Origin: Marsupella aquatica
Taxonomy: Eukaryota > Plantae > Marchantiophyta
Assembly: GCA_973895155.1 (NCBI GenBank)
Contig: OZ316894.1
Coordinates: forward strand, 25,294,709-25,358,708
DNA length: 64,000 nt
Direction of reading: 5' to 3'
Made by a program: the position numbers and the translations under genes. The notes beneath the pieces were generated by a model. It searched no databases and had not been told where the DNA came from. It saw only the letters and a program-made list of their open reading frames with translations. Positions 1,614 through 28,255 of the stretch are shown piece by piece. Each line of letters begins with the position of its first letter. The stretch's first letter is position 1.

Positions 1614-1776
1614 AGTTAATGACTGAGGTCATTCGATGACTCCTGTCTCGGGTCAATTTAGGGCGGTTCATGATTTCGCAGGGTTGATCAATTCCCAAGG
1701 AAAAAAGTTAATGACTGAGGTCATTCGATGACTCCTGTGTCTCGGGTCAATTTAGGCGGTTCACGATTTTCGTAGG
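1614..1776. repeat. Direct tandem duplication of about 70 bp
   Basis: agttaatgactgaggtcattcgatgactcctgt..ctcgggtcaatttag.gcggttca occurs at about 1614 and about 1707. Confidence 0.9.
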
Positions 1777-4518
1777 GAAAGGAGTTAATAATGATGCTGT
1801 ACGTCAGCAAATCGATTGTTCAGCGGATGAGATATCCTATTCTGTCCAGAGAATCAGAGATGGTAAACGAAGGCTTACAACAAAAGCGGGCATCGGAATG
1901 CTGATTTGTGACTCAACGGGAAGCTTTCCGCGGATTTCGCTGACGAGATAGACGGCCATTCAGGGTGAAATGTCACAAACCCTGGCGGGAATTGCAATTC
2001 GGTGAAGAGAAGTGAGTATTTACTGCACTGGACAAGACGTACCCTGAACATTCCATGTAAAACAGCCAGAAGGATGAGGGAAATCCGCAAAGACCGGGTG
2101 GTCAGCTCATTTGAGCTGGCTGCCCAGGGGTGAAGAATAGTTACACTAATGGGTCCACCGCAAGGGACGAAGATGAGGAGGAAGCCGGATAACTAAACTG
2201 CAGCAGACTATGTACGTTCTTTTGAACCAATATTTGTTCTCCAAAAATTCGACGTCTCGCTGGTTCAGTGCTGTACTCTAAAAAAAATTTTAAAAATTGA
2301 TTCTAGTGACATCACATTGGTAATATTGACTTGCACATAAGTTTTAGATGTCAAGGTCCTCAAGTTTGTCGCTGGAAACAGTAGCGTAGAGTAAAGAATC
2401 GAAAATTTCCAGAACGGGTGCTTACTTGTGACGGCTGACCCCCACTAGAAGATACAGAGGATCCCAGGGCACGGCTTTTTCGAAAGCAAAGCAGAGAAGA
2501 GGAAAGTAAAGACCATGGTCGTTGCTGGGAACGGCTCCTTCGTCTGACAGAGGACGACGGGGAGAAAAAGGAATTCCGGGTCAAGGAATTGAACCCAGTT
2601 CGGACAGAATTTCAGAGAAGAAGAAAAAATCCTCAGGTGAAATTAAACGTCCCAAAAATGATTGTCATCCGGTGTGAATGGAGGAATTAAATTAATCATA
2701 GATGAGAATTAAATTAATCGTAGATAGGACAAACAAACTTTCCGTTGTCGGCGACTTCCCAGAGAAGAAAGGAATTTCCCTTCCCCTGCTAGAAGTTAAG
2801 ACCTACACGTCCAATCCGCGAGCAGTGCCAGGGAGGGTAGAAACAAACACTAAGCAGTTGTCAATCATTCCGCTCATTCTTCTACATTGCGGTTTTGAAA
2901 ATGGTAATGGACAAATTAGAATCCTAGTTTCAAACTGAAAAAATACGCATTTCCACGTGCCTCAAACTCTCAAAGAGTTTTATTTACCAGAACGTTTCCT
3001 GTCGTGCCAATTGTGGGCTTCGATAAAGAAGCATGCTTTCAGGTTTCTATCATTCTAAAATGGTGGCACTTCAATCGAACTGAATTAATTATAGTGATCA
3101 CGTTACGTCATAAAAGAAGAGAACAAAGAGAGAAATTTCACCAGGAATTCGGGTCTGTATCGAAAGTTCACAACAGCACGGTGGATCCATTCGCAGCTCT
3201 TAACGAACACACGTAGCTTGTGGTTAGCACTCGTTTCGAACAACCCACACGATAGAGGGCGTCCTGGTTATGGGGATAGTTCACAATTTATTAAACTGAA
3301 ATGCCCCAATTCAAACATCTTTCGGTCAGTGTTTCATGTAAATTTGAGGTTTTCTGTTTCCCCTGAACCAACAACAAATGGAGTGGTAAACTCTGAACAC
3401 GGGAGCTCTAGTTCCAGAAGATTTTGGCATCCTTGAGAATGACCACGAAGAGCTCAAGGACAAATTTTTGCAGAGTCGTCTAAGGTCTTCAAGCCAATTC
3501 TTTAGCATTCCCAGTATGAACCACATTGATCACAATCTCCTGTTTGAGCATACAAATACAAGTGTCCCAAATCCAGCAGAACTACAAAAGCCTCTATTCA
3601 ACAGATCCGCAATTCCAATCTCAGCTCTTCGACCATTCTCCTCCTCAACCCCACAAACAAGAAGGCTGCCACTCATGCTTCGAGGCATAAAATTTCATTA
3701 CGAACTTGTAACTCACAAATCAATGAAGGGCAAGCAATAGAGGATTTGTATCTTACAAGGAAAGAATAAAAATATGCCCTAAGAAGTAAATACCTTTCTT
3801 CTTGTCTTTCCCTAGCAGTTGCCTTTTGATGATCAGCGCATTGGCCCGGCGCCTTCTACCTCCCAAATGATGCTATTCGTTACTTGTCCCTTTCTATCAT
3901 GAAATGAAGAAACCTCGTAATCACATACGAAGGCAAAATGCTCATGATCCTAATTCTACAAAACCCTGTTTCGAGAAACTCAAGGCCATGGACGTGCTAA
4001 ACCGACCACCTTCGTCGAGAAAGTGCGTGATGTACGAAATTTCCCTTGGCCTACGACTTCGAAAGTTCTATGACTATACAGTTGACCAGGATGAGAATGG
4101 AGGAGTTGAATTCCATCTCAATTTTGTCAATCTGACAGAAGGGCAACAGAAGTAACCGTGAGGACTTCATGGACTAGGACGAGAACAGAGTTTTGCATTG
4201 AATTCCTCTTCCAAAGGTACCCGCTCCGTGCGAGGTACCTAAAAGCCTGCGTACCGGAAATTTCCTGCAAAAGAACTGGATTGCGCGGCAAAAAGAGGAC
4301 TGCGAAACTCGTTGGAACAAGTCATGCTCTGAAATTGGGGCTTCTAATCGACTCGGATTTGAATCGACTGATTGATCCCCCAACGGCATCAATCGACATC
4401 GTTCGTTCTTGGGCTCTCAACCTCTCAGCTGGAAGGTCAAAGTTCAAAAGGAGTGTACACGCTGCTGAATAAATTGGTGGATAAAATAAAATCCAACTAG
4501 GTATTTCAGTATTTGTCA

Positions 4519-6444
4519 TTATTCTACTTCCTGCGTTAGCCCTTGATGGTACATACTGCTCAATGGCCACGGCATACAGTTGTTTCCGTTCGTCGCCCAC
4601 GGCATACAACTATATCTCGCCCCCTTCCCATCCGACTTTCCATTGCTTGCCCATGGCATACAACTATATCTGTACCCCTTCTCCTCCTTCTTGTCCTCCT
4701 CCGACTTTCCGACCAGCTCCTGCTCGCTTTCAGACCCCTTCCTCCCACCATTCGCCTGCCTCTCTTCATTTCCTGGCCCCTTCCTACCATTCGCCTGTTT
4801 ATGATTCTGCCCGCCTTGGTGCCCCGACCCCTTCCTCCCGTTCACCTGCTTCTGCTCCGGAGCACCTCCCTCCTTCCCGTTCTTCCCATTCAAAACCGCC
4901 CCGCTTTTCCCCAGCACGTCCTTCAGCCGAATGTGCGTAACCCCACACAGCGCCCGAGTAACGGCAACATATCCCGTCACCCCCGCGGGCGGAAAGATGA
5001 GCCAATTCCCCTCGCTCCTCTCCGGCCTCCACTTCTCGTGCCAGATCTTCTTCCCGCCCAGCCCCAGGTGCTCCTGCAGCTTCGCGTACGCCACCCTCGC
5101 CGGCTTCTCCACCAGCGCCGGTACGTTCAGAATCGACCCCAAATTCATCAGCGGCGCAAACCCGAAGGTCAGGTACGTCGCGCCCTCCTCTTGCAGCAGG
5201 GCCAGCGCCTGCGTCGTTAGGATCTCCGTCACCCCTCTCGGCGACCCCGCGACGGCCAGCAGCGGGTCGAGCAGGTACCCGTCCACCCCCCCGCACCGGA
5301 TCATCGTCGCCAGCCCGGCCACCTTGCCGGAATCCGGCGCCCGGACATACAGGTGCCTACACGCGCCCGGGAATAACCACGGCTCCAGCACCGTCGAGTA
5401 CGTCTGCGGGATCCCACGCGCGTTCCTCTCCTCCCTCCACTCCTTGTACAGCGCGCTCAGCTCCGCCTCCAGATCCAGCGACCGGCTCCCCGCCCGAGTC
5501 GGGTCATACACCTCCACTTTCCAACCCGCACTGGCTAACCGCCGGTTATCCCGGCGAATCGTCTGAAACCCCTTCCCTACCGCGATGACGTCGGTGGTCG
5601 GGTTAAGCACGGACGCGACCGCGAACTCCATCGCGCCCCACCCCGCCCGGTTCACTGCGTGGTCCACGAGCCGTGCGGTCGCGCCGATGACAGTCACCCG
5701 CCACTTTCGCCGTTTCGCATAAGCGCAGAAGGAATCGAAGATTTGGCCCACCTGGTTCGCGTCGCAGAGCGGGTCCCCGTACATGACTGCCACGCCGTAG
5801 CAGGGCTTGAAGCTGATCGCGTACTCAGGCATGGACGAGGGAGAGGTGGGAGGAAGGTATATAGAGAACGAGGGGTCGATGAAGCCGGCATGTGACGGTA
5901 ACCCGTAATTGTTCAAGAGGGTTGTAATTATTTCCGGAATTCCTTCCGAGAGAATGTTTTCAATCCGCGGTTGGGGGGTGGGTGAGGGACCTGACCCGTT
6001 CGAGGAAATAAGTTTATCGGTGACAGACGGAGTACTAGGAGGGGAGGGTTTGGAGCCCTTCAACATTAGTTGTTTAGTGGGGAGACCATCGCTCGAGGAA
6101 TCCGAGGAATTGGCACTGGTGTCACTCTTCTGAGACGGAGAGACCGAGGAGTGGGAAGGTGGGCGGATGTGCAGCATTTTCTTAGTGACGAGTTGGTAAG
6201 TGTTGGGTCGTCTTCCATTCTTCGGCCGCTGATGATTGGAATCGTCCAGTCGGACCTCCTTCAATCCGTTGACACCATTCTCCAAAACTCCCCCGTTTAC
6301 GCCGTTCACTCCATGATGATCCGTAACTCCGTTAACACCATGATCCATTACTCCGTTCACACCATGATCCATCACTCCGTTCACACCATGATCCATGAAT
6401 CCGTTCACTCCATTCTCCATGTCCTGAGAGTATGTGCCGTTCAT
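4519..6444 (-). CDS. Free-standing DUF2156 (phosphatidylglycerol lysyltransferase C-terminal-like / aminoacyl-tRNA transferase) protein, ErgS-like, about 641 aa, with low-complexity N- and C-terminal extensions
   Basis: Uninterrupted ORF with first ATG at 6444; the track's TTG start at 6480 overlaps a likely acceptor, ttgccag|. Core motifs YGLPSHAGFIDPSF, VAVMYGDPLC, SVLNPTT, LEAELSALYKEWREERN, PQTYSTVLEP, GYLLDPLLAVAGSPRGVTEIL, YLTFGFAPL and GGKKIWHEKWRP follow the order and spacing I recall for fungal free-standing DUF2156 proteins. Probable 5'UTR intron at 6474-6596 (GT..AG). Confidence 0.85.
   Translation of the reverse strand: MNGTYSQDMENGVNGFMDHGVNGVMDHGVNGVMDHGVNGVTDHHGVNGVNGGVLENGVNGLKEVRLDDSNHQRPKNGRRPNTYQLVTKKMLHIRPPSHSSVSPSQKSDTSANSSDSSSDGLPTKQLMLKGSKPSPPSTPSVTDKLISSNGSGPSPTPQPRIENILSEGIPEIITTLLNNYGLPSHAGFIDPSFSIYLPPTSPSSMPEYAISFKPCYGVAVMYGDPLCDANQVGQIFDSFCAYAKRRKWRVTVIGATARLVDHAVNRAGWGAMEFAVASVLNPTTDVIAVGKGFQTIRRDNRRLASAGWKVEVYDPTRAGSRSLDLEAELSALYKEWREERNARGIPQTYSTVLEPWLFPGACRHLYVRAPDSGKVAGLATMIRCGGVDGYLLDPLLAVAGSPRGVTEILTTQALALLQEEGATYLTFGFAPLMNLGSILNVPALVEKPARVAYAKLQEHLGLGGKKIWHEKWRPERSEGNWLIFPPAGVTGYVAVTRALCGVTHIRLKDVLGKSGAVLNGKNGKEGGAPEQKQVNGRKGSGHQGGQNHKQANGRKGPGNEERQANGGRKGSESEQELVGKSEEDKKEEKGYRYSCMPWASNGKSDGKGARYSCMPWATNGNNCMPWPLSSMYHQGLTQEVE
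6265..6420 (-). repeat. Coding tandem repeat, 24-nt unit encoding (NGVMDHGV)n, in the N-terminus of the DUF2156 protein
   Basis: About 5-6 copies of ccatgatccat(c/t)actccgtt(c/a)aca on the + strand; the protein reads GVNGVMDHGVNGVMDHGVNGVTDHHGVNGVNG. Confidence 0.9.
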
Positions 6445-9400
6445 GTCACCACCAACCAAGACCACGTTTTCACCTGGCAAACAGACTCTGTGCGAACTGG
6501 CGATCGCGATCTCTCCCCCTTTCAGTCACGCCGCAGTCGTAGGTTCCAACGCAGGTCTCTCGAGGAGAGCTACGATGACAAGGTGACGCTAGCTACCTGC
6601 ACAATCATATCCCCCACCACTTTTAAAAACACCATCCAGCTACAGCAACTCTCGTCTGCGTTGGCCAACTCCTTCACTCTGCCCTCAGTGCGCTACCGCT
6701 GGAACGCTGGCCTCGAGTAAAAATTTCAGATGAAAAGCAAACTTAACCTGCGAAACCTGTCCACCAACCCACCACCGTCTTTTCACCGTCTAACTGGAGA
6801 AACTGGAGTTTGCCACGGCCTACACGATCACTCCACTAAGTCGCCCTACAGTTCGAACGTAGGCCTCCAGAAGATCTACGAGTAAACGCAGACTAAAATC
6901 TGCACAAAGCATCCATGAGCAGGAAATTAATAACAACGACTTCACCCGAAAAAACCTGAGAAAGGTAAACCGATCCTAAGCACACACTCAATCGATGGCA
7001 ATCTCCCGTAGGCAAAATTCAACCGAGCAGTTCGTCTTCTCCTGATCGCAATCAACAGGTGACACCCTAGATCGTGATCTGGTAACATCCACACATCCCA
7101 AACTGGCGCTTTTTGTCCCATTTCTGAACGAGTTCTCCCACCGACTATCTTCTACAGAGCCAGCTCGCCAAAGAAATCTTCGGAACGACAGTGAGACCTC
7201 ATCCCCGTGCAACTCCTCCTACCAGCTAATCCACAGTACCCACTTGCCGCGGATGCCTTCCGCACGCCCATGAGACTGCTCCTCCAGGAGATCGGCATGC
7301 TAATCAACTATTCGCAGCCTGCTTCTCGAGAAAGACTCCACAACTTTACTCCAGTCAATGAAACTGTTAACTTCCTGCCTGATCGCAAAAGGCGACATGC
7401 ACAAATGAATGTTCACGACGGTGAATCGCCACCGACAAGTTATATCCTGCATCGTGATCTGCTCTCTCCATCGCACACGGCCCTTCACGTCCTCATTTCC
7501 AAGCAAGTTTTCCTCAATCACCTATCATCTGCCGCACCCCTGCTTCCGGACGAAATCTTCGGAAGGACCTTGAGACAGTACTACTCAAGGAGCTCAACGT
7601 GCACTGTTATTCCCACCTCCTTCTCAAGACCGCTCTCCACTTATATGTGTCCACTCACTGAAAATGGGAGTGACCTCACTCGTAGCAAAAGGCGACATGC
7701 AAGGTCGAACGTTTGGGATTGGTGGATAGTTCGCAATCTTACCAAATCAGCTGAAATCTTCAAACTTGGCTCGGGGTCCTGGGGGAATCGATCTAGATTG
7801 CGAGCGCCCGTCCATCAAAACTACGACCCAGCGCGCCCCCCGAACAGGACATCAAACAGCAGCAGGATTTCGTCGCTCGCCCCACTCGACAGACAGGTCA
7901 TCACCGTTCCGTAGCTATTGGTTTGGAGAGAGAGAGGCTGCGGGTGACGAAGGAGAGCTTAAAATTTACGAACGAACAACCGTAAGACAGGGATAAGAGA
8001 GTGTCAACAGACAGACAGTAGGACACTAAGAAATGTTCACTTAACGCAGACACTACCAAAGCTCAAACAAAAACATCTGGAAACGTTCGGCAAACCAGCC
8101 GAACGCTAGAAGTCTATTGCCCGGATTGTGGTACACCATGACCACCAATCAAGTAAATCAATCAACGCCATCTGGAATGAAATCGAGCAATCTATCGGAA
8201 ATCATGGCGATCAGTCAACTATATATCCGGAAAACACGATTACAAGTAGAACACATCTAACCTAACAATCACCTTAGTGCGCTCTGTTCGCTTTCTCAGC
8301 CGTCCCATTGTTCGCTGAATTCACTCATCCACAGACGACATCACGACTCACATAAATTAGATGCGCATGAACTAACAAGATCAGAGGACACAGCGTCGAT
8401 GGTTACTTGCGCAGGTCGGCGGCTCCTTCGCTGACGGCTGCTACTTGCCGACGATGCTGACCGGACGTCGGGCTCCGCTAGTCGCCAGGACCAGAGACGG
8501 AGAGATTTCCCTCACATGGTCCGGAACACGGAACGCTTGAGCTGCGAAGTGACCGTTCGTTGTGGCTTCTTCAAATTGCTGAAACAGAGAAAACAGGAAC
8601 GTCAAGCACTGGGTTACCAAGCTGCTATCGGCCATGTTCCAAAGCGCAAGATCTCAAGAAGCTTCCAGTCATGACGGTGCCTGGCCATGTCCAACGGTGC
8701 AAGCTTCAGAACAAGTTACATCATCTGCATTCGCAAGAATGATGCTAAGACGGATTCATTGAAGTCAAACACACGATCGAGCACGAATAGAAAAGCAGCA
8801 GCGAGTGTCAAAGAGTACGGCCATAGTACACCTCCTCTCTCTCTCGTCGAGATTGTCTTGTCTACTTGAGGTCCATTCGCAAGATGCTAAGACGGATCCA
8901 TTGAAGCCACCACACACGCACAAAGGAGTGTGAGCGCGTATACAACACGGGCAGCAAGTTGTCATAGGAATATGGTCTTCTTATTAGACGACTGTCATCG
9001 AGGTTCTCTTCTCTAGATGTACCTTTCGGGATTGCCTTTGTCTAGATCCCACCTCTCGAGAGATTGTCTCGTCTGGTTGTACCTCTTTAGTGCCCCCGGA
9101 TAGGAGTCTTACGTAGGCTGGACCAACCCTGTCAAACTTTTCTGGGCCGGGTGAGCAGCACCATCATCGGGCCTTTGGCAGGAGGGACGAACCTGTTAAA
9201 CCGGCTTCCATCCCCAGCACCACCTTCGCAACTACACTAGCTTTTTACGAGGTGCCTCGGAAATTCAACAAAATCTGCGTTAACTTGTCAGCTTACAGCA
9301 ACGGGCCCACGGAAGCGCAACAAGTTGGGCATATTTGCCAACTTGTGTGCGGCTGTTCCCGTTTCCAGAAATTCCTGTCACTTTTTGGAAGCTCGGTGGA

Positions 9401-12400
9401 AGTTCACGCGGGAGAAGCATGTGGGCTGGAAAAAAACCCTCACCCAGTTCTTATATCATTCTGTGATATTTACGAGGCCTCTGTTGCATGGGTGTTGAGC
9501 ATAAGTGAGATGGTCCAAGGGGAGTAGGCGGTAGGCCTGGCAACTGAAATGGCTTGGAAAAAAAACCTCAGCAAATTCTGATATTTAGTAGCGCTGGGTT
9601 GCATAGGTCTGCGCATAAGTGAGATAGTGAGATGGTCAAGGGGAGTGGGAGAGTAAGCCTGGCAATTGGATTTCAAGGAGTGTGGATTTCAAGGAGTGTG
9701 AAGGTTAAGAGGAGAGTGAGAAATTCAACATGGAAAAGGTGCATAGTGACACCTTTACATCCATCTAATGGTTAGAAAAAAATGTCAACATAATCTAACA
9801 GCTAGAGAGATTTCCCACCAGAACAAAGGTTTGTCAAAATTCACATAAGACAATAAGAACGAGATCAGTGTTGAGATGTATAAAATTTTCACTGAGAGTC
9901 TATTGTACATGACCCACTTTGTAAAGTCAAGCCATGGGCCATAATTTCTCTGGTAATAACAAAAGTGATAATTAGACTATGCTTGTGAGTAGGAAGGGCA
10001 TGGGATAGCAACCCGTCTTGTGCATACGCATGGGTAGTAGGGCTAGTGATTCATAATATAGAGCAGTCTTGCTTGTGAGATGTCTGTTTTGGAAATTAGG
10101 TCCATGATTTTGACAGTGGCAGCACCTAAATAGTCAAGTGAGTCCCCCATAAATATCAGTCCTGGAGGCTTTTTATTCTTTCCCAGTCCTTGAGGCTTTT
10201 TCCAGGAAGTCCAAACATAGGTGCACATAGTTCCCCACAAGAGTTGGCCTTACAATATAAAGACAATAGTAACAAGCCTTATTTGCAGAAGTTAATTAAG
10301 GGAAAGCTCGTCTGTTGTCCACCCAAGTCTTTTGGGAGGACTTAGGGCTGTTTCTAGCACATGAAAGACGGCTCATGATAGTCCCTGGCACTGGCCTTCT
10401 TATGAGCCTTCTTGAGTGACAAGTTTTGGTCATGCAGGATCAGGGAAATTTTACAGTTAATGATCGTGATCTAAAGGAATGCAGAATCACTTAAACACAC
10501 ACTTCAGACTCTGGTTTGAGTTAGTGCAAGCCCATGAAAGTAACATCGAATAGAATAGGTGTATAAATACTAAAATTACAAGTTATTTGTTTACAGGTCA
10601 CATGAAAATAAAAGAAAATAAAGTATGCATGATTGGATAAGTACGCATTCCCTCCAAAATCCAAAGTAAGTGCTTTAACCGCCACTAGCACTAGAAAAGG
10701 GGAAAAGTCCGAACCTTCCCCCTTTCCCACATTTCCTCCTGGCGATGCCATTCTGCTCCACAATTTTAGGAAAAATATGTATATTGCATCGAAATCTGGT
10801 ATTACCCAGGCTTGACCAGGCAGAGGGGTGGTTCTTAATAGATCAGTGACCATCGGTGGCATATCAGTGGGGGGCATTTTGACATAGGGAGAGGGTCGTC
10901 ATGTGTTGAACAACCAGGCTAGATATGGAGTGAATGCTCAAGTGGCACCGAATATCATTGTAGCAAGTCAACCTTTACATTGAAAGACTACTTTAATGCA
11001 AATACTAACGAGGGAGGTCAGGTAGGAGATAATAAAAACCCTGATGACATTACACTCCTCGTGGAAATATAGAGAAATTTCTCACTTCAGGCTTTAAACA
11101 CTTCACATTCTCCTCATCTCTTCCAAATTGAATTTTGGAAAGCTAAATGCTAAAGTAAGGCAGGTCGATCTGAAGCGGAGGAAAACAAGACGATGCCATG
11201 TTGAATTCTCATATCCGCAATTCACACAGCTCGCCAGCAAGAGTGAAGCTGACCTAAACAGCAACACTTAAAAAGTTGTACCCTTGGATGAGAGAATGGC
11301 CAGGAGAATTAAATCACCACTGTCCATTTCCAAAGCCTCATGGATCCCCCTCACCATAATGAATCAATGATATCTTAAACCACCAGTCCACCTATAAAGT
11401 GTTGTGGGTTACCCGCAGCTCTTGTTATAAAGATCAGAGTTTCAGCAACTCACTTGAGCTCCACAAAAGATGGCGAGTGCATAACCTTTTATTGGCAAGT
11501 GCTCCACCTGTTATGGGGAAACACTATTCACCACAGGACATGAATGAGGGAATGAAGCTTTTATATGGGCAGGTGTGGTTTAACAAAATAGATGTCACTA
11601 TATTGTACTCCCACAGCTTAGGGGACAATGACAGCTTAAGCCCTACCTTGCTAAGACAGAATTTGTAATGTCAAGGCAGAATAGCAACTTCCCCAGCCAA
11701 TTAACTCAGAATTACCATTTCCAGACAAAACTCAGTGCCCAGCAGGTAACCAATAAAGCCAATAACTCCTTAATTGGCATCCTGCACAGCAATATTGCAA
11801 CCTCCCACAACCTTGTGTACATGATCCAAATGAATTAAAAATGTTTTGTCAATAATCATCATCAAAGTCTGAGCAGCTGGATCAGATCAACCTTCATGGC
11901 AAAAGTCCATCATCGAAAAGTGAACTGCACGAGCAGCAAGAGATAATCTCAAGGTTGCCATTTTTTTGGTCCAAATGCCTATGTTGCCACTGTTTTTGTT
12001 TGTTTAATTCGTGCTTTGGCATCTTTTCCACAATGGGTAAGGTAGACTAAGTCAGGTTAGCTTACAATGATCTGGTGGTGGTCATCTGAACTCCCCTCAA
12101 CCCTGGCTGTCTGTCCAGCTACACCGTCCACCTTGAGGGCGAGTCCCTTGCTGTATTCGTCATACTATCCCAACCCATCCAGCTCCTGGTCACCACTAAT
12201 TTGTGATTGAAAGAGACCCACCCAAGTTTGAGGAAGGCTGGAATTATTTGTGCATTATTTGCAAAACTTGGAAAAACTCTTCCTTTACTCCTGATGTAAG
12301 GAAAAACCATGGACATTGATCACTATGTGGTCACTAGAATGGTTGGAAACAATTCAATAGAGCAGCACCCATTCCATGGTCGTAGTAATGCCAGAGAAAA

Positions 12401-13924: not shown

Positions 13925-16900
13925 TTACACTCGCTGGTAACTCTTGTATAACGTGGCTACAGACCGCGTCGTCTCCCTGTACTCTCTGTGGTCTGTGTAG
14001 ATGTGCTCTTTTTGGGTCTTGACAACAGGTGATGCTACTGTCGACTTTTGCTTTCTAGTACACGACAGATCTCACCTGCGTTGTGACAGCCGTAAGGAAC
14101 AGGCATCTTATGATGTAGGCCTTTCGCAGGGAACAAAGCGGTTCGATCTGGATCCTCGAAAGCCATCGAGAACAAAGGTGACATTCTTGACAATTTCTTT
14201 TTAAAGTTTGATCAGTGCTGTAGTTAGAGTTCGATTGTATTGGGAGTTTCATTCGCAGCCATTTTCTTTTCCAACAAGATTATGACAAGCAGAGTCCGAC
14301 GTCTCATGGCGGGGCTGGCCTTCAGAGGTGTATCCCTAGTTAAGGACAAATCTTCAGTCATTTCGGAAGACATGGGAAACCCAAAAGTGCCAATTTTCTC
14401 GAAGAAAACACTGTTTTCGGTGGGATCGATTTCGACCAGCTGTCAACGCGCGAATGAGAATTTCGTCTGGAGCTTGAGTTCGGATTTCCAGGCTCTTGAT
14501 CAGTGTTCCTTAAATCAGTGGCGTGCAGGACTTTGTAGGAGAAGCAGCATACTGGGCGTTATTCCTGTGGGTGTGATCAGGTTGGCTAGACAGGTAGACG
14601 GTGCATTGGCTAGACAGGTAGACGGTGCATTACAGTTGAGTCGATTGGTCTCACATGGGTTCTAATCGGACGGCATGATCAAACGGCCTTTACATTAACC
14701 ACTGTATATGGGCCCTGGACGGGTGTGGCCCTTTTCCCACAGTTTCGCTGGTTGTGGTGGACGGTTCCATCTCCCATGGCATGGGTGATGAAGCTCGAGT
14801 TCTCTTCGAACGAGCCCGAATCATATCAATGTAGGCGAATGGCACAAACAGGTCATGCTATGCTAGTTTAGAAACGCGAGATTTGGTTTTCTCTCGCTAA
14901 CTGCCATCCAAGGGGTATATTTAATTCTACCTTCTATCATTTCACTTCACGTTCTACAGACTATTCTTAATGTCTTAACTTTCCGAACCCGGTGTTGGTC
15001 AAGGCAGTGATGTGATCATCTTCCTCGTTCAAGCTTGAGTTGAGCTGCATTGCAATTGGGGACTTGCATCACAGCTGAGAAGAGCTCTTGAGGAGGTGAA
15101 CCGTGGAAGAGTCTTGTCCTCTGATGCATGATTGAACTGGATTGAAGATCGGAGAATTGCAACCTGGAGTAAAGAGAAAGGGCGCAGCAGTGGAAGAGGT
15201 CGCTCCCCAGGCAATTTCGGAGTTGAAGACCGTTTGACTCGTTGCGTTGTAATAACTATCCTTTGTCTCCAAGCATCGTCGCGCCTGATAGATAACCTGA
15301 TAAGGCGCCAGATTAGTGTTGGCCCTATTTCAAGTCATGTTGGAAGTTTGCCTTGCGGCCCAGCAGACAGTCGAAACACAACACACAGCAATTGTATTGT
15401 CCGTAGGTGATGGAAGCAAATAGAGTGCGGTATTGTAGGAATGCTGCCGGTGGAGCGGTAAGAGAACTTATGGAGGACAGTGGAAAATGGATTCGGGATC
15501 GTCAACATTACCCAATCTTGTTTTTGTCATGTCTGAATGTTCAAAATTTTGTGTGACTTTGCTGTCCAGGCAGTGAGAAGTGGAATGAGAGGTTGCACGA
15601 TAGACGCATCCGTAGCTTCCCTCATATTATGCTGTTCACGTGTACATTCCTGGTAACTAAGCTTTTTATCTTTGGGCCCTTTGCTCACTTGCTTGCCTGT
15701 GGACTTTTAGGTTCCTTTGGACTTTCTTCCTCTCCATTCTCTAAGGTGGGAGGATATTTCGAAAGGTGGAGCTGTAACTTTCGGGGAACTATTTCAAAAC
15801 ACAGCCATGGACAATTTTTGCCCAGGCCGTCGGATTAAGTCTCCTGGATAGGATGAGAACCGAAAAGGGACAGTTACTATAAACTTCCGTCTCAGTATCG
15901 TCGTCAGTTTGAGTCTTAGCGCTCTTGTAAAGTGCTGCAAACTTATGGAACGCAGGAGGGAGGTTGGGCAATTCATTGACAAGGCCTTACAAGCCTATAC
16001 TGGGCTTCGGATATTGGAGGAAGATTTAGCAGAACCGTCAGGTGGGAATTACGGAGGGATGGGAGTGCACCCTGGGAGCTCGCATGGAGTACCATATCAG
16101 TCTCTCACGAACAGTGCCGATTCGCATACATCAAATTCAGAGCATCACTTCCATGCTTCGTCGCAAATTCTCTTCTCACAAGAGGTAAATTTATGGTTTC
16201 TGTACCAAGGTTTCAAATCCATGATACCATTAACGAGTAGCCGTAGTACTTGGGCTTGGTAGATATCTAGCAGGTTTCGACTCTTGGAAGGTGTTCACGA
16301 ATGATGAAAAGACAAGTACTTTTCTCCTTAGAAATCACCACAGCGGGCCTTGTTGAGGTAAACAACTCTATTGGCATTACAGATCTACTGGAAATATTTT
16401 CTGGAGTTGGTACAGCGAGATTTTGAAGAAGAGTAATTTTGGGCTTTGCAGATACAAAAGCAAGTCGCACTCGTTGACGATGTTTTCAGACTCCTTAATC
16501 TGCCCACTTTGTAAAAGGTACATTCTGCAACGAACATGCGTGATTTTGAACTCTCCTTCCAGATAAAGACGATGTCCGGATATTCTTAAGCTTTCATCGG
16601 TTCTAGATTGGATTCAGTTTGCTTTTCGATGCTTGATATTCTGCTTCATTGAGTCACCTATTTTACCCGCTGGTTCAGTTCATGCATCCTTTCAATTCTG
16701 CGCAAGAGCCTTCGGGATCGTCTCCCTCCCACTGCTTTCACAGAAGTAGCGGCTGGTCTATCCAAACTCGAAGTTTTGAACTGAATATCCTTTGGCAGGA
16801 ACCGCGATCTCAACTTGCATGGGCCTTAGGAGAGGTTAACCTTCCCTACAAGGGTGGCCACCGAAGTGAATAAAGTCAATGCAAGCTTGAACGCTGTATG

Positions 16901-17440
16901 GTCAGAGGAAACAAGGAATGTCATCACAGGTCTTAAAAATGGGTTGTGAGATAGGACAGCGAATATGCAGGATATGGATATCGCCCTCGATAATTATCAG
17001 TGTCCAACAGATTTCTGTCGCCCATGGGTATAATGAATTTCCTCAAAAGAGAAAGTTGGCATTTACGCGAAGAATAGATATGATAAGTGCGAATGCTTTT
17101 CATGGACCTCAATCACCGGCTCATCAACGATCAAATGTGATGAAGTAGTGTACATCGTCGAGTATGATGTGAGTCTCGTCTTAGCGCTCAAACCTCCGAT
17201 CCACAAGACTCCCTTCTTTGTGGCAATTTTGCTACTCCACTTGAAGGGCCCCACAAAATGCCCATACACTGCACATTTATCTAGTGGAACTTGGGTAAGT
17301 TCTGAAGAAGCTTTCAACGACCGAACTAGATCTGCTAAGTGCAAATCTTTTAGGATGGAAACAGTCTGGAGCTCGTTATTTCGAATGCCGATTATCTGCC
17401 CTGAAAGGTTTTGGGCTGCCATCAAAGGTCATGTGGGCAG
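13925..17440 (-). mobile_element. Decayed DIRS-type (tyrosine recombinase) retrotransposon with RT, RNase H, methyltransferase-like and YR remnants
   Basis: Minus-strand fragments occur in DIRS order. RT: GPFKWSSKIATK...TRLTSY/LDDV, with YLDD broken by a 1-nt frameshift at about 17154-17164. RNase H: KHGSDALNL...DMVLHAS/LPG at about 16065-16160. MT-like: HKFAA...EVYSNCPFSVLI...IVP at about 15780-15950. YR: LCSLRKAYIIRCLFLTAVTTQ..KAKVDS and SVATLYKSYQRV* at about 13925-14140. Many stops and frameshifts. Confidence 0.6.
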
Positions 17441-20129
17441 TGTTCTCGGATCAGGTTACTTCACAATGTGTTGTTGTTGAAGGCGGAAGTGTGACGTGTG
17501 TTAGATAATAGGGCGCCTCAAAGCTTAGAGATTAAAGGTGTTTGGCATTCAGCCATAAAAGAATGGTCATAAGTTTTCACAAGGTTATGGAGAAGATTTT
17601 TCTTTTTTCACCAGCCTCTAGAGCAACTAATGGTAATGGCATAAGACCAGAAAAGTTATGGACTAAAAAAATTTCGACTATAACTTTTTGCTTTGACCCA
17701 TAACTAGGGAGTTAAGGTACATGAGACTCCCTTATGTGCTTGTGAGTTTGATTTGACTGCCAAACCCTCACAGACAGCATGGAAATGTTTAAATGTGCTC
17801 TGACAGTGTTGTGACCTGTAAATGAAAAATCAAGTCATAGCCGGTTTTCAGGTGTTGGTAGCCGATACCTCGTTGTGGGGTTGGGTGAGGTACCTACCCC
17901 AAGAATGCAATAGGGACTCAAATGGACAATGTCATCCATGCACGCAGGCAGTATGGCAGCAATTCCTGATGGTACTCTCCAGTCACAAGCAAGGCATTGT
18001 AACAATAACTATGGTATCTTATCTAAATATGGGATTCAATTACTTTTTCTGCACTTTTCAGTGACCTTGTGAGGAAGCTTACAGGCATTCCATCAAAGTC
18101 TTTCTGGCCACGGTGGCATGCTTGAAGGGTTTTTTTTATTTCAAACACATAAACTAATTTCAAGGTTTTGTTCTTTGCATACTAGTTTTGGAACTCAATG
18201 ATTGAGGACCCAGGTCTCACAAAGATTCCACTTTGGCCGCACTAATGGTAAACTATAATACACAGTTGCGCCACTTTTTAGAGTGATCGTCATTCAAATT
18301 TGCAGGGCAAAAAAATTAAAAAATCTGGTCAAAGGTAAGTAATAATGACAAAGTGTGAATTGTTTAGTGTGACTCACAAAAAGTTACACCATTGTCGAAG
18401 AAAAGCCAGAATAATCACACAAGACACCAACAGAAAATGAAAGACTTTAACAAAATGCACAAGGATCAAGGAGGATACTCACTCCATGATCCATGCAGGA
18501 TTATTATGAAGATACTATATTATGAAGATACTATATGGGGAATCCACCTTTCAGATTTTGTCTTATTCAGATTTTGTGTTCAGTATTTTTATTTTAATGT
18601 GCCTTAACTAGGTGAATCATTTGTATTAATTTGATTTTGAATTAGCTTTTGGACCCCTTTTAATTTTAGTGAACTTAGAGTATTTTGAATGTATTTGGCT
18701 CCCTCCTAAATGTTTAATCTTTACTTTTCAATCACTCAGTGAATTATCTTTTTTCTCATGAGAGAAATGAGTTTGAACTATGTGCACATTTGGTGTACTA
18801 AGTTCCCCTTGTGGTTTCTTTTACAAAACTTATGGTTTTAATTGAGTTGATTGTCATTACCTAGAAGCAAGTGAAAATCTGTATTGTATGTGCACAACTC
18901 TTTAGTATCTTTGTATTTGGTCATAATGTGTTCTTCTTTGCAGGTGTCACTCACTCTTTAATTAACAAATATGAATTTCTTGGAATATACTTTACATGTA
19001 CTTCTTTAATCATAAAATAAATTATATGAATTACATATCAATACAAGACAAAAAAAAAAGAGTCATGTTCTAGGATGAACATGCTATATCACTCCATGAT
19101 CCATGCAAGTAAATATTGTACATACTCACATGCAAGTAAGTATTGTACATGTTCAATATTGTGTGCATAGTTTTGTATAATACCAGTAAGAGGAGTTTAA
19201 TTGCTAATAACATTTTAGTCACTAGATCAATAAAAAACTGTTCTCCCAATATTTGTGGTGACTTTTACAGTCATTTGCACTGTCATTTTCAATGTCAAAA
19301 AACAAAAGTAATAAGGCCCACATAGTGAAGCGCATGGTACGGGCGTTGATGGCAAGGTGTCGGGCGAGGGGCACACTCACAATGTAGGGCAGCCCCTCGA
19401 AGCGCTCCAGTCTCGCATGGATGGGGACGGGGGCGGCAAACGAGTGAAGTGATGGTGAATGAGAAAAAGAGAATCGTCTGCGGTACCGGGTGCACGATCG
19501 TATGTGCTAGATCGGGCAAGTTTTGGATTATTTCTAAACTCCTAGAGCGATCGCGAACTTCGCCCCCTGAGTCTCAAAAACTGGAAAAGGGCCCCGCCTG
19601 TCAAACGTAACGAAGTAAAAAAACTGACAAAAAGGAGACCAAAAATACGGAAATGGGGAAAAGGGGGAGATTAAGGTTTAAAAGGAACATAAGAGAAAAA
19701 GGGTTAAAAAGGAAAAAACCACCTCTCATTTTGTTATACTTTTGTGGTTGTCATAGCCAGTCTTTTGTGCAATGACATATTTATTCAAGAATTTTTTTGT
19801 GCAAGGAGAAAAAAGAAAAGGGAACTTTTCTCGCTGCCATAGCCAGTATTTTGCACAATGATATCTGTATTGTAACAAAAAATATTTCTTCAACAACATC
19901 TTTTGCACCATTATCAACATCTTCAACCAAACAATATCTTTTATGCAATGCACAGGGATTGAAAGGATATCGACAGAATGGTCATCTTTGCTAAACCATA
20001 AACCCTAAAACACTAAACCTGAAACTGATAATATAACGTTGCACCAATTTATAGAGTGATCGCCATTCAAATGCAGGGGCATTTTGGGTAAAAAAAACAA
20101 AACAAAGAAAAAGACTTGCTCCTTCTTTC

Positions 20130-20760
20130 CTTGACTTTTTACTTCATAACATCTTTCGAAAGCTTGCCTGAAATGAAACCATTTTTCTTATAACATCTTT
20201 TAGTTCAAGATATCTTTGGCAAAATGACACCTTTTTCTTAGCAACATCTTTCACATAATGGCATCTTTGGCAAAATGATTTTTTTTCTTAACGACATCTT
20301 TTACTTTGTGACTTTTTCACATAACAACATCTTGGGCGACACGACATCTTTTTTCTTAACAACATCTTTTGTGCAACGCACGGGTATTTTCCCTGAACGA
20401 TGTCTTGGCCGACACTAAATATTTTCCCTCAACGACATCCTTGCCGACATGACATCTTTTTTCTTAACAACATCTTGGCCGACATGATTTTTTTTTTTTC
20501 AACGACTTCTTGGCCGACACAACATATTTTTTATCAATGACCTCTTGGCTGACATGACATCTTTTTTTCTTGACGACTTCTTTTCTCTCAATGACCTTTT
20601 GGTCAACACGACATCTTTTCTCTCGACGACCTCTTGGCTGACACCACATCTTTTCTCTCCATGGCCTCTTGGGTGACACGACATCTTCTCTCTCCACAAC
20701 CTCTTGGCGCGCCGACATGACATCTTTTTTCTGAACGACATCTTGGCCGACACAACTAGT
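20130..20760. repeat. Degenerate minisatellite with a unit of about 35-40 bp, likely TE-internal
   Basis: More than 10 diverged copies of aacgacatcttggccgacacgacatcttttttctc in tandem, with no unique spacers. Confidence 0.85.
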
Positions 20761-21986
20761 TCTTTTGTGCAATGCACGGGTATTGAGCTAGTATTGTATA
20801 TAAGTTTGTTGTGAGCTCCTATGGCCATCACCTTGAGGCCAAGACACCCTCACTTTTGCTTGTGCATGGGTGTGACCAAGCAACCCTGATTGCTTTCCAA
20901 TGACTAGGGCCCTATTATGCATTGCGTGGACATGTACTTTGGGTGCATGTTTATGATGTGTTATGCCACAATGCAAGACATTCTGACCACCCTAGTTCCC
21001 TCCTTTGCTCCATAAAACCTTTATTGCTGGCCCCATCCACTTGACAAGCACCCGGCCTTGCTCTTCCACACCCTCAGTGCTACCATGGAACCTCATTCTT
21101 GATCCCTATTGCAGCCTTTAATTTCCCTACTCACATACTCAAATTATCCTTCTTCTACCTTACATAAAGGTAGAATGTTATTTTTTCCTCACAATTGCAC
21201 TTGCTTCTTTTCCATGTGTCCTCTTTGGACTTCTTTTGTTTGCTCTTCATTGTACTTTGTTTGGCCCTTTGTGTGTAATATATTTTTCTTTCCTTTGTCT
21301 CACACAAAGTTTTAAATCTTGCAATCTTCTTTCCAACAGGCCTGTGTACACAACAATTTCTTCCAGCTATTATCTTTCTCTCTATTCTTTTTCAGTATGT
21401 TATAGTAGTTAACTTAGAATTTTAAGTCCGGATAGCCCTCAACACATTTCCAATGGCTCCCTCTTCTATGGATGAGTCCTTTGGTTTGCTTAGAATGACT
21501 ATTAAACATTTTGGAAAGAGCTTTCCAATAAACCTAAATTGGCAGATTCTGTTGAGTACAAAGGAGATTACAAGTCAGGAACCATGGGGAGCATGCACTC
21601 TACTAAGAAATAAGATGACTGATTCTGTTCCCTTGGTTACTATGATTGTCATGTGCATAACTTCATACACTTCCATGTTATGACACTAAAGTTTTTGAGA
21701 GAAAGGTTACATTATAAAGTTCTTGCACTATGGTACATTTTATTAAAAGGAAGTTTTTGTGTGCTTAAGGGTGGCTTTACAAGATGTCAGGGACAGGACT
21801 GTAATCTTTTTGTTCCTATGTGATATTGAATCTACACATTTAATCCTGGAAAAATCAGGAAACACACTGAACACTGTCCTGTAAAGCACCTTCTTGGAAA
21901 GCCCTGCTGACTTTTGCCCGTTAGTCAGCACTATGACAAAATAGTCATCATCTTACTAATAAATCCCAGAATAAATCACAAATAGA

Positions 21987-23814: not shown

Positions 23815-26800
23815 ATGGAGCAATTCACAGTTCATGATTTGGCCATGGTTTGATATCTCCCCTTTGGAAGTGGTCCAGTGAGAGTGGAGGGTCAGCCACG
23901 GGCAAATGGTGAAATAAATCAACACTTCAGGAACTAGAATGTCTTTCAAATTTCTCATTTCAAAAGTAGGCCCTGCGGCTTCTAGATTCAGGATTTTGAC
24001 TATTAACCACTGCTGATTTGGTGTGATATGATTGCAGCTGCACTGATCACGACTTGTGCGAGAAATGTTATCGTCAGGGCCAGCCACATTTGGGGCACAG
24101 GTTTCTACAGGTTGCTAGAGACAGTAGTGAATATCACCCTCCTTTTCAGGTTTACTACCTTGTGTGCCATGACTGTGGAGAAGCACCTATAGAGGGACGA
24201 TGCCATCGCCATAGATGGTATCTAATCTAAACCCTCAATGTATGCTGCAGTGCGTAATCATAGGCCAAAGGATTCTTCTCATTGACAGCTATTCGCACTC
24301 AGATCGTTATGTTGACTTACCAGAACGCTCTTAAATGTTCACAGTTTTGTGGTCTTGGGGGACTACTTTTAAAAACATATTTCAGAAGATGTATTCTTGA
24401 TAAATAGCTCCTGAATTGACCACACCCCGTTATTCCAATAGATTTTTGTGAAAGGATATAGTTATTAATTTGTGAATGGATTTGTGTTCCAGGCGCCCAA
24501 ACCTCCACCTCTGTAATGACTGTTATAATACCCGGCCAAAGCCTGGAAATCCTGCCGCGGAATGGGAAGTACTGGACGAGCCTAAAATACAGACAATCTA
24601 CCGAACACACAGCCCAACTTACCACTTCCACAAACAGTGTGGAGCGTGTGGTATTACACCTATTGTGGGGCCTAGATTCGATGCTATCTCGTAATTCTCT
24701 TCATTTGTCCTTCACATTTTTGCTCTTTCAGAAGTCTGCCATTTAATGCGCTTGTGTGTCTGTCAAAGCGGGTTCAATACATTTGGCGGCTTTAAAGGAT
24801 TAAATAATAAATTCTCTCTTTTCTGATTGTGCAGGTATCCTGAGTACTCCCTGTGCCTTATATGCTTTGACTCAAAGTTCGTCAAGGGATTAGTGCAAAA
24901 TGCAGAATATCGCCGGATTGAGCGGCCGGAAGCACATAAAGTTAGACATGTATTTATGTATGACTGTCGTAATTGTGGAGAGGTACCTATTGACGGCCCT
25001 GCATATGTCAATAAAAGGTTGGTGAAGTCTCCTTTCTCACATCGTGTCCCTGTTTTTCTAGTGCATGAGTAAATGCTGAAATGTCAAGATTGTCGTTAAG
25101 GTCAGACGTTTTATGACTCAAGGCTCTTCATACATGATTACTTGGACGCACATTTCAGGACACATTCTAATTCCTATGTTGCTGTAAACAGAGTGTCGGA
25201 TAAGGTCTTATGCCTCCTGTGTTATATGAACATAGGATCTCAGGTGCAGCTTGAGTACACCAGAGTGGACGCCCCTGCTCAATATGGTGAACCCCCTCCC
25301 CCAACTTTACCTCGATTAACGGCAGGAACAGTGAGTGCTGAGGAGTACTCGAACCTTGTCGAAGAGTTTGAACGATTCAGGGAAGAGAAGGAAGCCGCAG
25401 CAAGAGTGGTTGCCAGCAATCTCCTGAATCGCGCTCATGAAGTTGAGAAGCTGAGAAATGATTTGCAGGAAGCGCAGAGAGTGGCTGCAGAACACTCAAG
25501 TGTAGGCCGAGATATAATAGGATCGAATGCCGAAAAAAAGGAATTGGTTAGAGTGCGAAACGATTATGCAAGTCTTTTTGAAGCCTTTGAGACACTAAAG
25601 GTGGAGAAGGAAGAAGCAGCCAGGGCAAGTGCTGATTTAGTAGTTCTTTCTGCAGAATTAGAGAAACTCAAGGTAGACAGGGAGGCAGAGACGAGAGTCA
25701 TTGCGGATTACGTGCAAGACCTGGAGAGACTGAAGGCCGAGAAAGAAGAGGTGGTCAGATTGAGCGCAGAGTATGCCTTAGAGTTGGAACAAATGAAGCA
25801 AGGGAAAGGCGAAGAAGCCAAACCCAGAGCAGAGTACCAATTGCTTGCTGAAGAAAACACGAAACTGAAGAAAGAGAGGGAAGAAGCGGCCAGAATATCG
25901 CAGGAGCACTCGACTCTTATGAATGACTTTGAGAAGTTTAGGCGAGAGTTGGAAGCAGCAGCAGAAAGGAATGCGACCCTCATCCAAGAATGTGAGCAAC
26001 TGAAGGCAGAGAAGGAGGAATTAGCAGAATACGCCAGCTTGGCCAAAGAGTTGGAAACATTGGATGGAGCAGAAGAAGAGCGCTTCACGAAGACTTCAGA
26101 CGAATACTTGATTCTGGTCAAAGAAGTTGAGAAATTGAAGGAATTAAATGCTGATCTTACCCAAGAACTAGAATTGTTAAAGGTGGAGTCAGAGTCTGCT
26201 AGAGTTAGAGCAGAGCAGAAATACTTGAGCCTCATCAAAGAATATGAGATGTATAAGATAGAGAACGAACAGGCAGAAGGTGTGCCAGCCGCAGATCATC
26301 TGAAAGTAGTGGAAGAATTGGAAGCGTTACGCGAAGAGAAAGAGCTGGAGTTGAGATCAAAAGCAGGAGAATATGCAAATCTCAGCAGAGATTATGATGC
26401 GTTGCACGAAGAGAAAGAGCTGGAGTTGAGATCAAAAGCAGGAGAATATGCAAATCTCAGCAGAGATTTTGATGCGTTGCGGGAAGAGAAAGAGCTGGAA
26501 TTGAGATCAAAAGCAGAAGAATGTGCAAATCTCAGCAGAGAATTTGATACTCACAAGCAACTGAAACAAAATTTAGAGCGTTCCACTGCACAAGAACTTG
26601 CAGATCTTGCCCAAAAGTGTGAAAAACTAATAGAAGATAAGGGCTGGCTTGTTCAGGAAGTGGAGAATGTGTATAAGGAAAGTGAAGCGACTCTTGTCAA
26701 CGAACTGACGAAATTGAAGGAAGAGATGGGTGAGATAATTAGTGCACAGGCTGCAAAGCACGAAAACCTCTTACAGGAATTTGAGAAACTGACAGTGGAA

Positions 26801-28255
26801 AAGGAGGAAATATCGGCACTACATGGCAGTCTCACGCGCAGATTTGAAAAGTTGGCGAACGAGAAGGAAGAAGCACTGAAACTGAGTGCTGCAGATTACT
26901 CTAGTCTTCTTGTAGAAGTTGAGAAGTTGAAGAGTGAGAAGGAAGAAGCGTTCAGAATTAGTGCAGCTGATTACTCTGAATTCATCGAAGCAGCTGAAAG
27001 AGTGAAACAAGAAAAAGACGAGATGATCAGAGCAAGCACAGCTGAGTCTTCGACCCTCAAGGAGGAAGTTGAGAGATTAAAGAATGAAAACGAAGAAGCA
27101 GTGAGAGTAAGGGAAGCCAGGCACTCTAAACTCCTTGAGGAGTTTGAGAGATTTAAGGAAGAGAAGGAAGAAGAAAGGAGACTTTTGGAAGAAACTCATT
27201 TGAGACTCAAGGATGAACATGGGCAACTCAAGGCAGAGAAAGAAGACACAGCATATTCATACTCAGACCTGCTTTCGAAGTTTGGGGAGCTGGAGTCGGA
27301 GATGAAAGCGGCAAGGGTGAAGGCAGAGGATGACTCACGTCTTCTGGATGAACTCGAAAAACTACAAGAAGAAAAGGACGCAGCAACTGCACTATCTTCC
27401 AGCCTGACCCTTGAATTGGAGAAGCTGGAAGCGGAAATGACAGCAGAGTACTCCAGCCTGTTGCGAGAATATGAGGCATACAAGCAAGAGAAAGGGGAAA
27501 TAGAGATAGTGAATACCCCTGAGTACAAACACCTTGTCACGGAATTCGAGAAATTAAGGAAACAGAAGGCGCAGGAATATGAACTGGTCTACGTAGATTT
27601 GGTAAAATCGGAGGACGAGCTTGGAGAATTAAGGAAGACGAGCGCAGAACAGCATAAGCACTCTCTCCAAGCGATCGAGAAATTGAAAGCAGAGAAAGTG
27701 GAAGCTGTGAGACAAACTGAAGAAGAGTGCTCAAGGCTCACTGAAGAACTTCGGAAATGTAAATCAACATTTGCATTCGATATGTCTGGTCTTGGCAAGT
27801 GTGCTCAGGTTGCTATCTGCACATATGGTGCACTGGTATTAAAAAAGAAGATCGATCTCGAGAAAGGGTATGCGAGGTCCACTCTGTCTGATTCCAAAAC
27901 TCTCCATGAGGCCGAAAGATTTATGGCTGACACAGCACGTGTACTCAATGATGAATACGAAGACTTCAAACGTGAGGTTCAGGAAATTACAGATGAAGAG
28001 GCCCGACATTACTATCTAACCAGTGCTTTACCAGCCCATATCAAGAAGGTAAGGGTTTCTGCCAGTTGATGTTATCTGGAGACTAGATGACACAAAATTA
28101 ATTTCTTTGCTTTGTCCAAAGCTGGTGCAATGTATATTTCAATTCCAGAATGATGAAGTCCTTGTTATTCCGTGTTCCATCAGATGAACCTAAAAGCAGG
28201 TGTGAGCAACATATCGGATGAACTTTTGGCTGCAAAGAAAACGTTTGGCAGATGA
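23815..28255 (+). CDS. Protein with three tandem ZZ-type (NBR1-like) zinc fingers and a long coiled coil, about 1147 aa
   Basis: Phase-consistent GT-AG model: 23815-23847, 24150-24217, 24493-24690, 24835-25017, 25159-28048, 28184-28255 (3444 nt). Fingers: CHDCGEAPIEGR...LHLCNDCY, CGACGITPIVGPRF...YSLCLICF, CRNCGEVPIDGPAY...VLCLLCY. These are followed by E/K-rich heptads. The first exon is the least certain (weak gtttga donor). Confidence 0.85.
26324..26548 (+). repeat. Coding tandem triplication, 75 nt / 25 aa (ALREEKELELRSKAGEYANLSRDYD)
   Basis: Near-identical units start at 26324, 26399 and 26474. Confidence 0.95.

Follow-up and report, generated by a model that had tools for sequence, protein, structure and literature searches.

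The genome assembly of the liverwort Marsupella aquatica carries, in the 64,000-nucleotide stretch analyzed here (the window), an open reading frame (ORF) whose product resembles ErgS, the fungal synthase of ergosteryl-glycine. Land plants make phytosterols, not ergosterol, and the locus raises the question of whether this is a plant gene at all, where it came from, and what its product might make. An earlier note, made from the sequence alone, proposed that it is a fungal sterol aminoacyltransferase acquired by horizontal gene transfer (HGT). We find a real and conserved ErgS-clade gene of a leafy liverwort: it is integrated in host DNA, it is spliced in a relative, its sequence is constrained, and it falls within the ErgS clade. 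At a probability of roughly 60%, we read it as a fungus-derived, domesticated enzyme that may make glycyl-phytosterols.

An intact gene with a free-standing DUF2156 domain

The ORF and the parts of its product are as follows.

4519..6444, minus strand: ErgS-like ORF of 641 amino acids (aa), a single coding exon, with Calypogeia fissa orthologs P0002 and P0004
4915..5955, minus strand: catalytic core, aa 164-510, GNAT I - alpha(+) helix - GNAT II (Pfam, AlphaFold2)
4999-5826, minus strand: Pfam DUF2156 stretch, aa 207-482
5530..5565, minus strand: alpha(+) helix, aa 294-305, helix H131-142 of the model, with R297, R298, R301 and R302
6070..6219, minus strand: conserved N-terminal segment, aa 76-125, 48 of 50 residues identical to C. 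fissa P0004
6316..6421, minus strand: 24-bp coding tandem repeat, 4.4 copies, encoding a Gly/Asn-rich N-terminus
4561..4671, minus strand: C-terminal tail with three C-[MVI]-P-W motifs (aa 595, 613, 623)

The coding part is intact and without an intron, as the earlier note had said, and the ErgS-type motifs that it quoted are present in the translation. The DUF2156 profile that it named, PF09924, matches aa 207-482 with an E value of 4.2e-26 (92 bits against a cut-off of 27.5). This is the sole Pfam family in the protein, so that the domain is free-standing, as it is in ErgS. Pfam finds no tRNA-synthetase domain, and the spliced 5' region contains no upstream coding exon. The strongest 19-residue hydropathy mean is 1.44, with no membrane span in the 641 aa, and the NCBIfam scores for LysX and MprF lie far under their cut-offs (38 against 742 bits and 18 against 600 bits). 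By Pfam, NCBIfam and hydropathy, the transmembrane flippase and lysyl-tRNA synthetase (LysRS) domains of MprF and LysX are not present.

The GC-rich core that had been noticed earlier is also real. Between 5281 and 5340, 45 of 60 letters are G or C, and the core as a whole has a GC fraction of 0.64 and a third-position fraction (GC3) of 0.82, while GC3 is 0.56 in the N-terminal and 0.68 in the C-terminal part. In four further clean exons from the window, GC3 was 0.47-0.52; a fifth piece was disregarded, as it contained a stop. Each of the four C. fissa-cluster proteins has the tail motifs and no other protein collected here does, and the tail gave no usable Atlas match when used as a query. 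One 80-aa annotated C. fissa protein (P0005), on a third contig of 21.9 Mb, consists of this tail alone.

The gene sits in liverwort DNA

The nearest protein to ours is from the leafy liverwort C. fissa, which has two full copies, one on a 15.2-Mb contig and the other on a 14.0-Mb contig; the genes are CAM6101407.1 and CAM6102276.1. These copies are the only close relatives that we found, with cores 91% identical to that of M. aquatica, and they provide the presence in a sister species that the earlier note had asked for. A whole-genome duplication has been reported for C. fissa (bioRxiv 2025.04.01.646537), and the two copies fit it if, as we infer, the proteins come from that assembly.

Sequencing runs point the same way. 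Between 86 and 100% of the ORF's words occur in four runs from two studies. A single contig of run X1, which may be the source sample, is exact over 1709-11504, at a depth of 15.5 compared with 17-19 on neighboring contigs. In run X2, which belongs to a different study, 3349-6324 is covered, with 4 differences and 3 gaps. Run X8 bears a different organism label and contains both coding pieces, which show 35 differences in 553 nt, and pieces of introns. Altogether, runs under three organism labels contain the gene between the same flanks and with the same introns, at 93-100% identity. Two metagenome scans did not find the locus. Run X7, an air metagenome, contains pieces of the gene within 5043-5718 at 92-96% identity, presumably from airborne liverwort material.

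A fungal contaminant, or an assembly chimera with an ascomycete living in the rhizoids, might be suspected here, given the GC-rich core and the finding that C. fissa rhizoids host the intracellular ascomycete Hyaloscypha hepaticicola (bioRxiv 2025.04.01.646537). The agreement of gene, flanks and introns across three organism labels argues against this, as do its two occurrences in the assembly of C. fissa, the depth in X1 and the protein's tails, which are unlike those of any fungal match. We regard this explanation as largely refuted and contamination as very unlikely: the gene sits in host DNA and is common to sister taxa.

Transcript structure and sequence constraint

Run X6 comes from a relative that is ~93% identical, and its label as an RNA run is a guess; among runs recorded as RNA, none contained the stretch, which speaks neither way on expression. 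It outlines the following transcript features around the ORF (UTR, untranslated region).

3555..4518, minus strand: 3' UTR, ~960 nt in the relative's contig (X6 contig 3555-6484)
6445..6899, minus strand: 5' UTR part of the coding exon, 2 upstream ATGs (X6 contig 6529-6874, depth 355)
6900..7742, minus strand: 5' UTR intron 3, 843 nt, GT..AG (X6 loose ends matching at 6874 and 7745)
7743..7937, minus strand: 5' UTR exon, 3 upstream ATGs (X6 record 28)
7938..8406, minus strand: 5' UTR intron 2, 469 nt, GT..AG (X6 joint 7931->8407, depth 250)
8407..8578, minus strand: 5' UTR exon (X6 record 28)
8579..8831, minus strand: 5' UTR intron 1, 253 nt, GT..AG (X6 joint 8580->8836, depth 135)

The splice joints of X6 were not seen in the DNA-type runs examined, and intron 1 also occurs unspliced in X6 (contig 8551-8863, depth 40). 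We conclude that the ErgS-like gene is transcribed and spliced in the relative sampled by this probable RNA run, which speaks for expression within those bounds. Where a single plant-style 5' UTR intron had been guessed, there are three. Together with the C. fissa orthologs and the independent DNA runs, these introns bear out the earlier view of a real plant gene that has been domesticated. The three 5' exons checked contain 6 upstream ATGs in total.

The X6 contig over 3555-6484 has a depth of 494; aligned over 2945 nt, it shows 208 differences and 70 gaps. Among the 12 indels listed (there are 103 more), six lie in the 3' UTR and are 1-2 nt long; the other six, which lie in the ORF, add up locally to 3 and keep the frame. 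At residue 452, the one residue checked, X6 agrees with C. fissa. The core is identical to that of C. fissa P0004 at 316 of 347 positions, while the linkers reach 20 of 38 (after aa 76-125) and 45 of 75. By this comparison, sequence constraint is strongest where expected, in the core and in aa 76-125.

A second, diverged X6 contig (record 10; 3887 nt, depth 122) matches 5016-5129 and 6087-6198 at ~80%, the latter match falling within the conserved N-terminal segment. Its two matches are separated by 945 letters, compared with 957 in the window. The contig's loose end, in register and close to the domain end, reads EALFLLFPP where the present gene has EGNWLIFPP, and is nearer to the fungal form. 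It is either an older diverged paralog or the product of a second liverwort in the X6 sample.

Predicted fold and active-site residues

An AlphaFold2 model of aa 164-510, built with 78 sequences, has a predicted local distance difference test (pLDDT) score of 92.6 and contains the GNAT I - alpha(+) helix - GNAT II arrangement of ErgS. It shares the double-GNAT fold of the soluble domains of bacterial MprF and LysX (4v35, 4v36, 5vrv, 7duw), with template modeling (TM) scores of 0.72-0.74, Z of 26-28 and a root-mean-square deviation (rmsd) of 3.1-3.5 over 305-313 residues; against 7duw, Z is 27.8 and rmsd 3.2 for 313 aligned residues. The liverwort protein differs from these aminoacyl-phosphatidylglycerol synthases in sequence (13-18% identity) and in having neither the flippase nor the LysRS domain. 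The structures of ErdS, the ergosteryl-aspartate synthase (PDB 9w9e, 9w9f and 9w9g; PMC13219428), were not among the fold-search matches, probably having been released after the date of the library. By sequence, ErdS is the best match among solved structures (E 6.5e-10).

Residues 291-302 include five basic residues (K291, R297, R298, R301 and R302) and one Asp, K291 standing just before the helix. The helix aligns with that of Yarrowia ErgS, whose Arg and Lys residues are needed for activity (PMC8913301), and we predict that it binds the tRNA acceptor stem. ErdS residues described in PMC13219428 were mapped through the alignment to 9w9g. At eight positions around the tRNA end, mutation cut ErdS activity (PMC13219428). 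Five of these are identical in the liverwort protein (ErdS W785, R789, G791, Q793 and K916 correspond to W336, R340, G344, Q347 and K471), two are conservative (K790 to R343 and F913 to W468), and one is changed (H795 to Y349), with Tyr likewise in Yarrowia ErgS. ErdS R914 is His in both the liverwort protein (H469) and Yarrowia ErgS. Y637 and D647 of the ErdS sterol cavity are kept, as are all of the near-invariant ErgS residues H185, D190, D224 and K465. The liverwort protein differs from ErdS in lacking an N-terminal aspartyl-tRNA synthetase (AspRS) domain, in belonging to a separate clade, and in Q836 and K838, which are L391 and D393 here, in addition to H795 and R914.

The closest likeness is to fungal ErgS, which is also a free-standing DUF2156 protein without a fused synthetase or flippase, encoded by an intronless coding region, and which also has a low-complexity N-terminal extension and the basic alpha(+) helix. 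The liverwort gene differs from it in its land-plant host, in its three 5' UTR introns, in a ~130-aa C-terminal tail that holds the three C-x-P-W motifs, and in W356 and W468, which replace F and Y/F.

Kinship and direction of transfer

An exhaustive phmmer search of 1.84 billion representatives of 50% clusters returned 661 matches at E <=0.001. C. fissa stands at 91% identity, followed by a gap down to 46% or less. Twenty of the 149 further matches were looked up: 10 have fungal names, 1 belongs to a Myxococcales bacterium, 9 are nameless, and none is a plant, although homologs above 50% identity would hide under the C. fissa representative. Word-index protein searches gave C. fissa only or nothing; they are insensitive, having recovered 2 of 9 clusters of our own alignment rows. 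The named near matches are from Phylliscum (a Lichinomycete), Cladophialophora and Yarrowia. The cluster of the eighth-ranked match contains Yarrowia YALI0E00330p, a biochemically proven ergosteryl-glycine synthase (PMC8913301), which is identical to the liverwort protein at 150 of 431 positions in a pairwise alignment (35%, E 9e-74).

For the phylogeny, 136 of 154 proteins covered at least 220 query columns, from which sets of 60 and 30 rows were chosen by hand; long-branch rows such as P0054, P0120 and P0113 were dropped, and ErdS was represented by P0139 (an AspRS fragment plus DUF2156) and its clade rather than by full-length ErdS. The two 30-row trees gave support of 100/100 to an ErgS clade that includes the liverwort protein, and the 60-row set recovered this clade in 1000 of 1000 bootstraps. 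In all bootstrapped trees the liverwort protein stood apart from ErdS and from the bacterial proteins, and its union with six bacteria-type rows, one of them named as bacterial, was rejected by the approximately unbiased (AU) test (p-AU 4.4e-5). The earlier assignment to the ErgS group is thus upheld; the protein is not an MprF, LysX or ErdS.

On the earlier note's other phylogenetic expectation, nesting within Ascomycota, the trees are divided. The liverwort protein joined the Yarrowia/Phylliscum group in 470, 530 and 504 of 1000 bootstraps, and this grouping had a Shimodaira-Hasegawa-like approximate likelihood ratio (SH-aLRT) of 87 in a quick mixture tree. An N-terminal Tyr-x-x-Val motif was considered as a sign of kinship with the nearest fungal group and rejected, as 48 of 200 shuffles did equally well and the profile missed the motif.

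We nevertheless consider transfer from fungus to plant very probable, less from nesting in the trees than from where the gene occurs (the family and its paralog are fungal, and a single plant genus was seen to have it), from the intronless core with its high GC3, and from C. fissa having an intracellular ascomycete partner. The donor was probably an ascomycete and the recipient an ancestor of Calypogeia-like leafy liverworts. Fungus-to-bryophyte transfers are reported as frequent (PMC12513842), and the present gene resembles those described there in being an intron-poor accessory gene of microbial origin. It differs in kind, in that the passages of that source covered here do not name any lipid-modifying enzyme that depends on tRNA.

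Some other fungal proteins deserve mention. P0094, from the basidiomycete Naganishia friedmannii, belongs to the ErgS clade and adds to the one basidiomycete exception given in the paper that described the family. P0115, P0181 and P0182 are DUF2156 proteins of Saitoella that belong neither to the ErgS clade nor to the AspRS-linked group, and in two species they are annotated as fused to a dual-specificity phosphatase. They are possibly a third fungal type or a merge of gene models.

Proposed function and rival explanations

In the mechanism that we propose, the host's cytosolic glycyl-tRNA synthetase would supply Gly-tRNA(Gly), as shown for fungal ErgS. The alpha(+) helix and the GNAT II pocket, where the relevant residues are largely kept, would hold the acceptor end of the tRNA, and the pocket at the GNAT I/II interface would, by analogy with the paralog ErdS, hold a C4-unmethylated sterol (sitosterol, stigmasterol or campesterol). 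Transesterification of glycine to the plant's own sterols, at their 3-beta-OH, is predicted to give a steryl-glycine ester, in which the free hydroxyl is masked and an amine added, and which may alter membrane domains or sensitivity to sterol-binding compounds. More speculatively, the Cys-Pro-Trp repeats of the tail could tether the enzyme to the membrane; that they serve as an S-acylation anchor is a guess. Modification of the ergosterol of fungal partners, which the earlier note had also entertained, is unlikely, because a soluble enzyme without a membrane span that needs cytosolic aminoacyl-tRNA would be separated from the fungal membrane.

Several points weigh against reading the gene as a fungus-derived maker of glycyl-phytosterols. 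The splicing evidence comes from the ~93% identical relative only, under a guessed RNA label. Two of four Yarrowia helix residues are identical in the liverwort protein, and W356 and W468 depart from the ErgS consensus (65 of 75 have F at the former position, 63 of 75 Y or F at the latter). Of the eight "fungal" rows closest to the liverwort protein, five lack an organism name, and the branch of the liverwort protein itself is long, at 0.8-1.3 changes per site. The liverwort protein was sister to all fungal ErgS in 518, 457 and 237 of 1000 bootstraps, and both best trees under the LG+G4 model have this shape (support 52/35 and 46/21). DUF2156 specificity is described as not predictable from sequence (PMC8913301), and we found no report, in the portions of the literature available to us, of fungal ErgS having been tried on plant sterols.

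The main rival keeps the origin and the chemistry and changes the specificity, to another amino acid (Ala or Ser, for example) or to another alcohol acceptor such as a triterpenol, an oil-body terpenol or diacylglycerol. The long stem branch, the two departing tryptophans and the unreadability of specificity from sequence would all suit it, and a second diverged copy, transcribed in the relative, would leave room for divergence. All four tested ErgS proteins, though, come from across the clade and gave one and the same lipid in yeast (PMC8913301), and the nearest tested enzyme also has the residues Y349, H469, D190, D224 and H185. Moreover, ErdS is promiscuous for sterol side chains and accepts sitosterol and stigmasterol in vitro (PMC13219428), so that plant sterols would require no change. 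We therefore hold a changed specificity to be rather unlikely. It is much less likely still that catalysis has been lost and the protein kept as a binder of sterol or tRNA: the proposed catalytic base of ErdS, H795, is Tyr here and R914 is His, yet the active Yarrowia enzyme has both of the same changes, and the tRNA-end residues are kept.

Alternatively, the gene may not have come from a crown ascomycete, descending instead from an unsampled donor by an independent acquisition, or from an old eukaryotic gene that nearly all lineages have lost, and branching as sister to all fungal ErgS. That placement is taken by 24-52% of bootstraps and by both best trees under LG+G4, and no fungal sequence exceeds 46% identity. 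The mixture model with 30 rows, which is less prone to long-branch pull, lowers it to the 237 of 1000 given above, however, and the rejection of the bacterial union also counts against such an origin. So do the absence of named plant or algal matches besides C. fissa among the 20 clusters looked up, a published eukaryote-wide search that, as described, found these synthases only in Dikarya and mostly in Ascomycota (PMC8913301), and the intronless coding region with its GC3 of 0.82 beside ~0.5 in other exons. We think this origin improbable, if slightly less so than lost catalysis.

If the fungus-derived enzyme does make glycyl-phytosterols, this tRNA-dependent aminoacylation of sterols would be a lipid chemistry new to plants, with glycyl-phytosterols as an unreported class of plant lipid. 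The surprise would lie in the chemistry, as fungus-to-bryophyte transfer as such is common. Our literature search, which reached few subscription papers, found no plant report of DUF2156 sterol aminoacylation, in line with the earlier note, although the family could sit unnamed in the HGT tables of PMC12513842. A plant copy that is kept, spliced and duplicated predicts a use of charged tRNA outside translation. The gene also offers a way into the question of what steryl-amino acids are for, and yeast is, to our knowledge, without the pathway. For C. fissa, axenic growth, a long-read genome and a reconstituted symbiosis have been described (bioRxiv 2025.04.01.646537). A wider and doubtful extension is that leafy liverworts make steryl-amino acids through a small fungus-derived family, in which two diverged transcribed copies possibly differ in specificity, and so remodel sterols at the interface between rhizoid and ascomycete; if true, this would be the first tRNA-dependent lipid aminoacylation in plants.

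Other features of the window

The plant neighbors named earlier were recovered in part. Small exons at ~59200-61750 on the minus strand presumably encode a GT31 galactosyltransferase, HPGT-like by its motifs; the Pfam Galactosyl_T match to the exons at ~59-62 kb has an E value of 0.044, under the cut-off. The PSY-like gene was not identified, in that phytoene-synthase motifs had no convincing match in the window. A short exon-like frame at ~47760-47850 on the minus strand resembles PSY2/SMEK (PP4R3), which may be what "PSY-like" had meant. Pfam gave no matches for 272 other window ORFs of at least 55 aa.

About 5.5 kb upstream of the ErgS-like gene, a multi-exon gene at ~14400-17300 on the plus strand is spliced in X6 at a depth of 40; neither Pfam nor PDB gave it an identification. 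An open frame of 989 codons at 25100-28066, also on the plus strand, is Glu/Lys-rich and coiled-coil-like, contains three 75-bp repeats at 26324-26548, and has no Pfam match. Dispersed high-copy repeats lie at 11453-11583, 9512-9765 and 18300-21300, where the summed depth is tens of times the unique level, and degenerate 18/35-bp arrays occupy 20171-20707.

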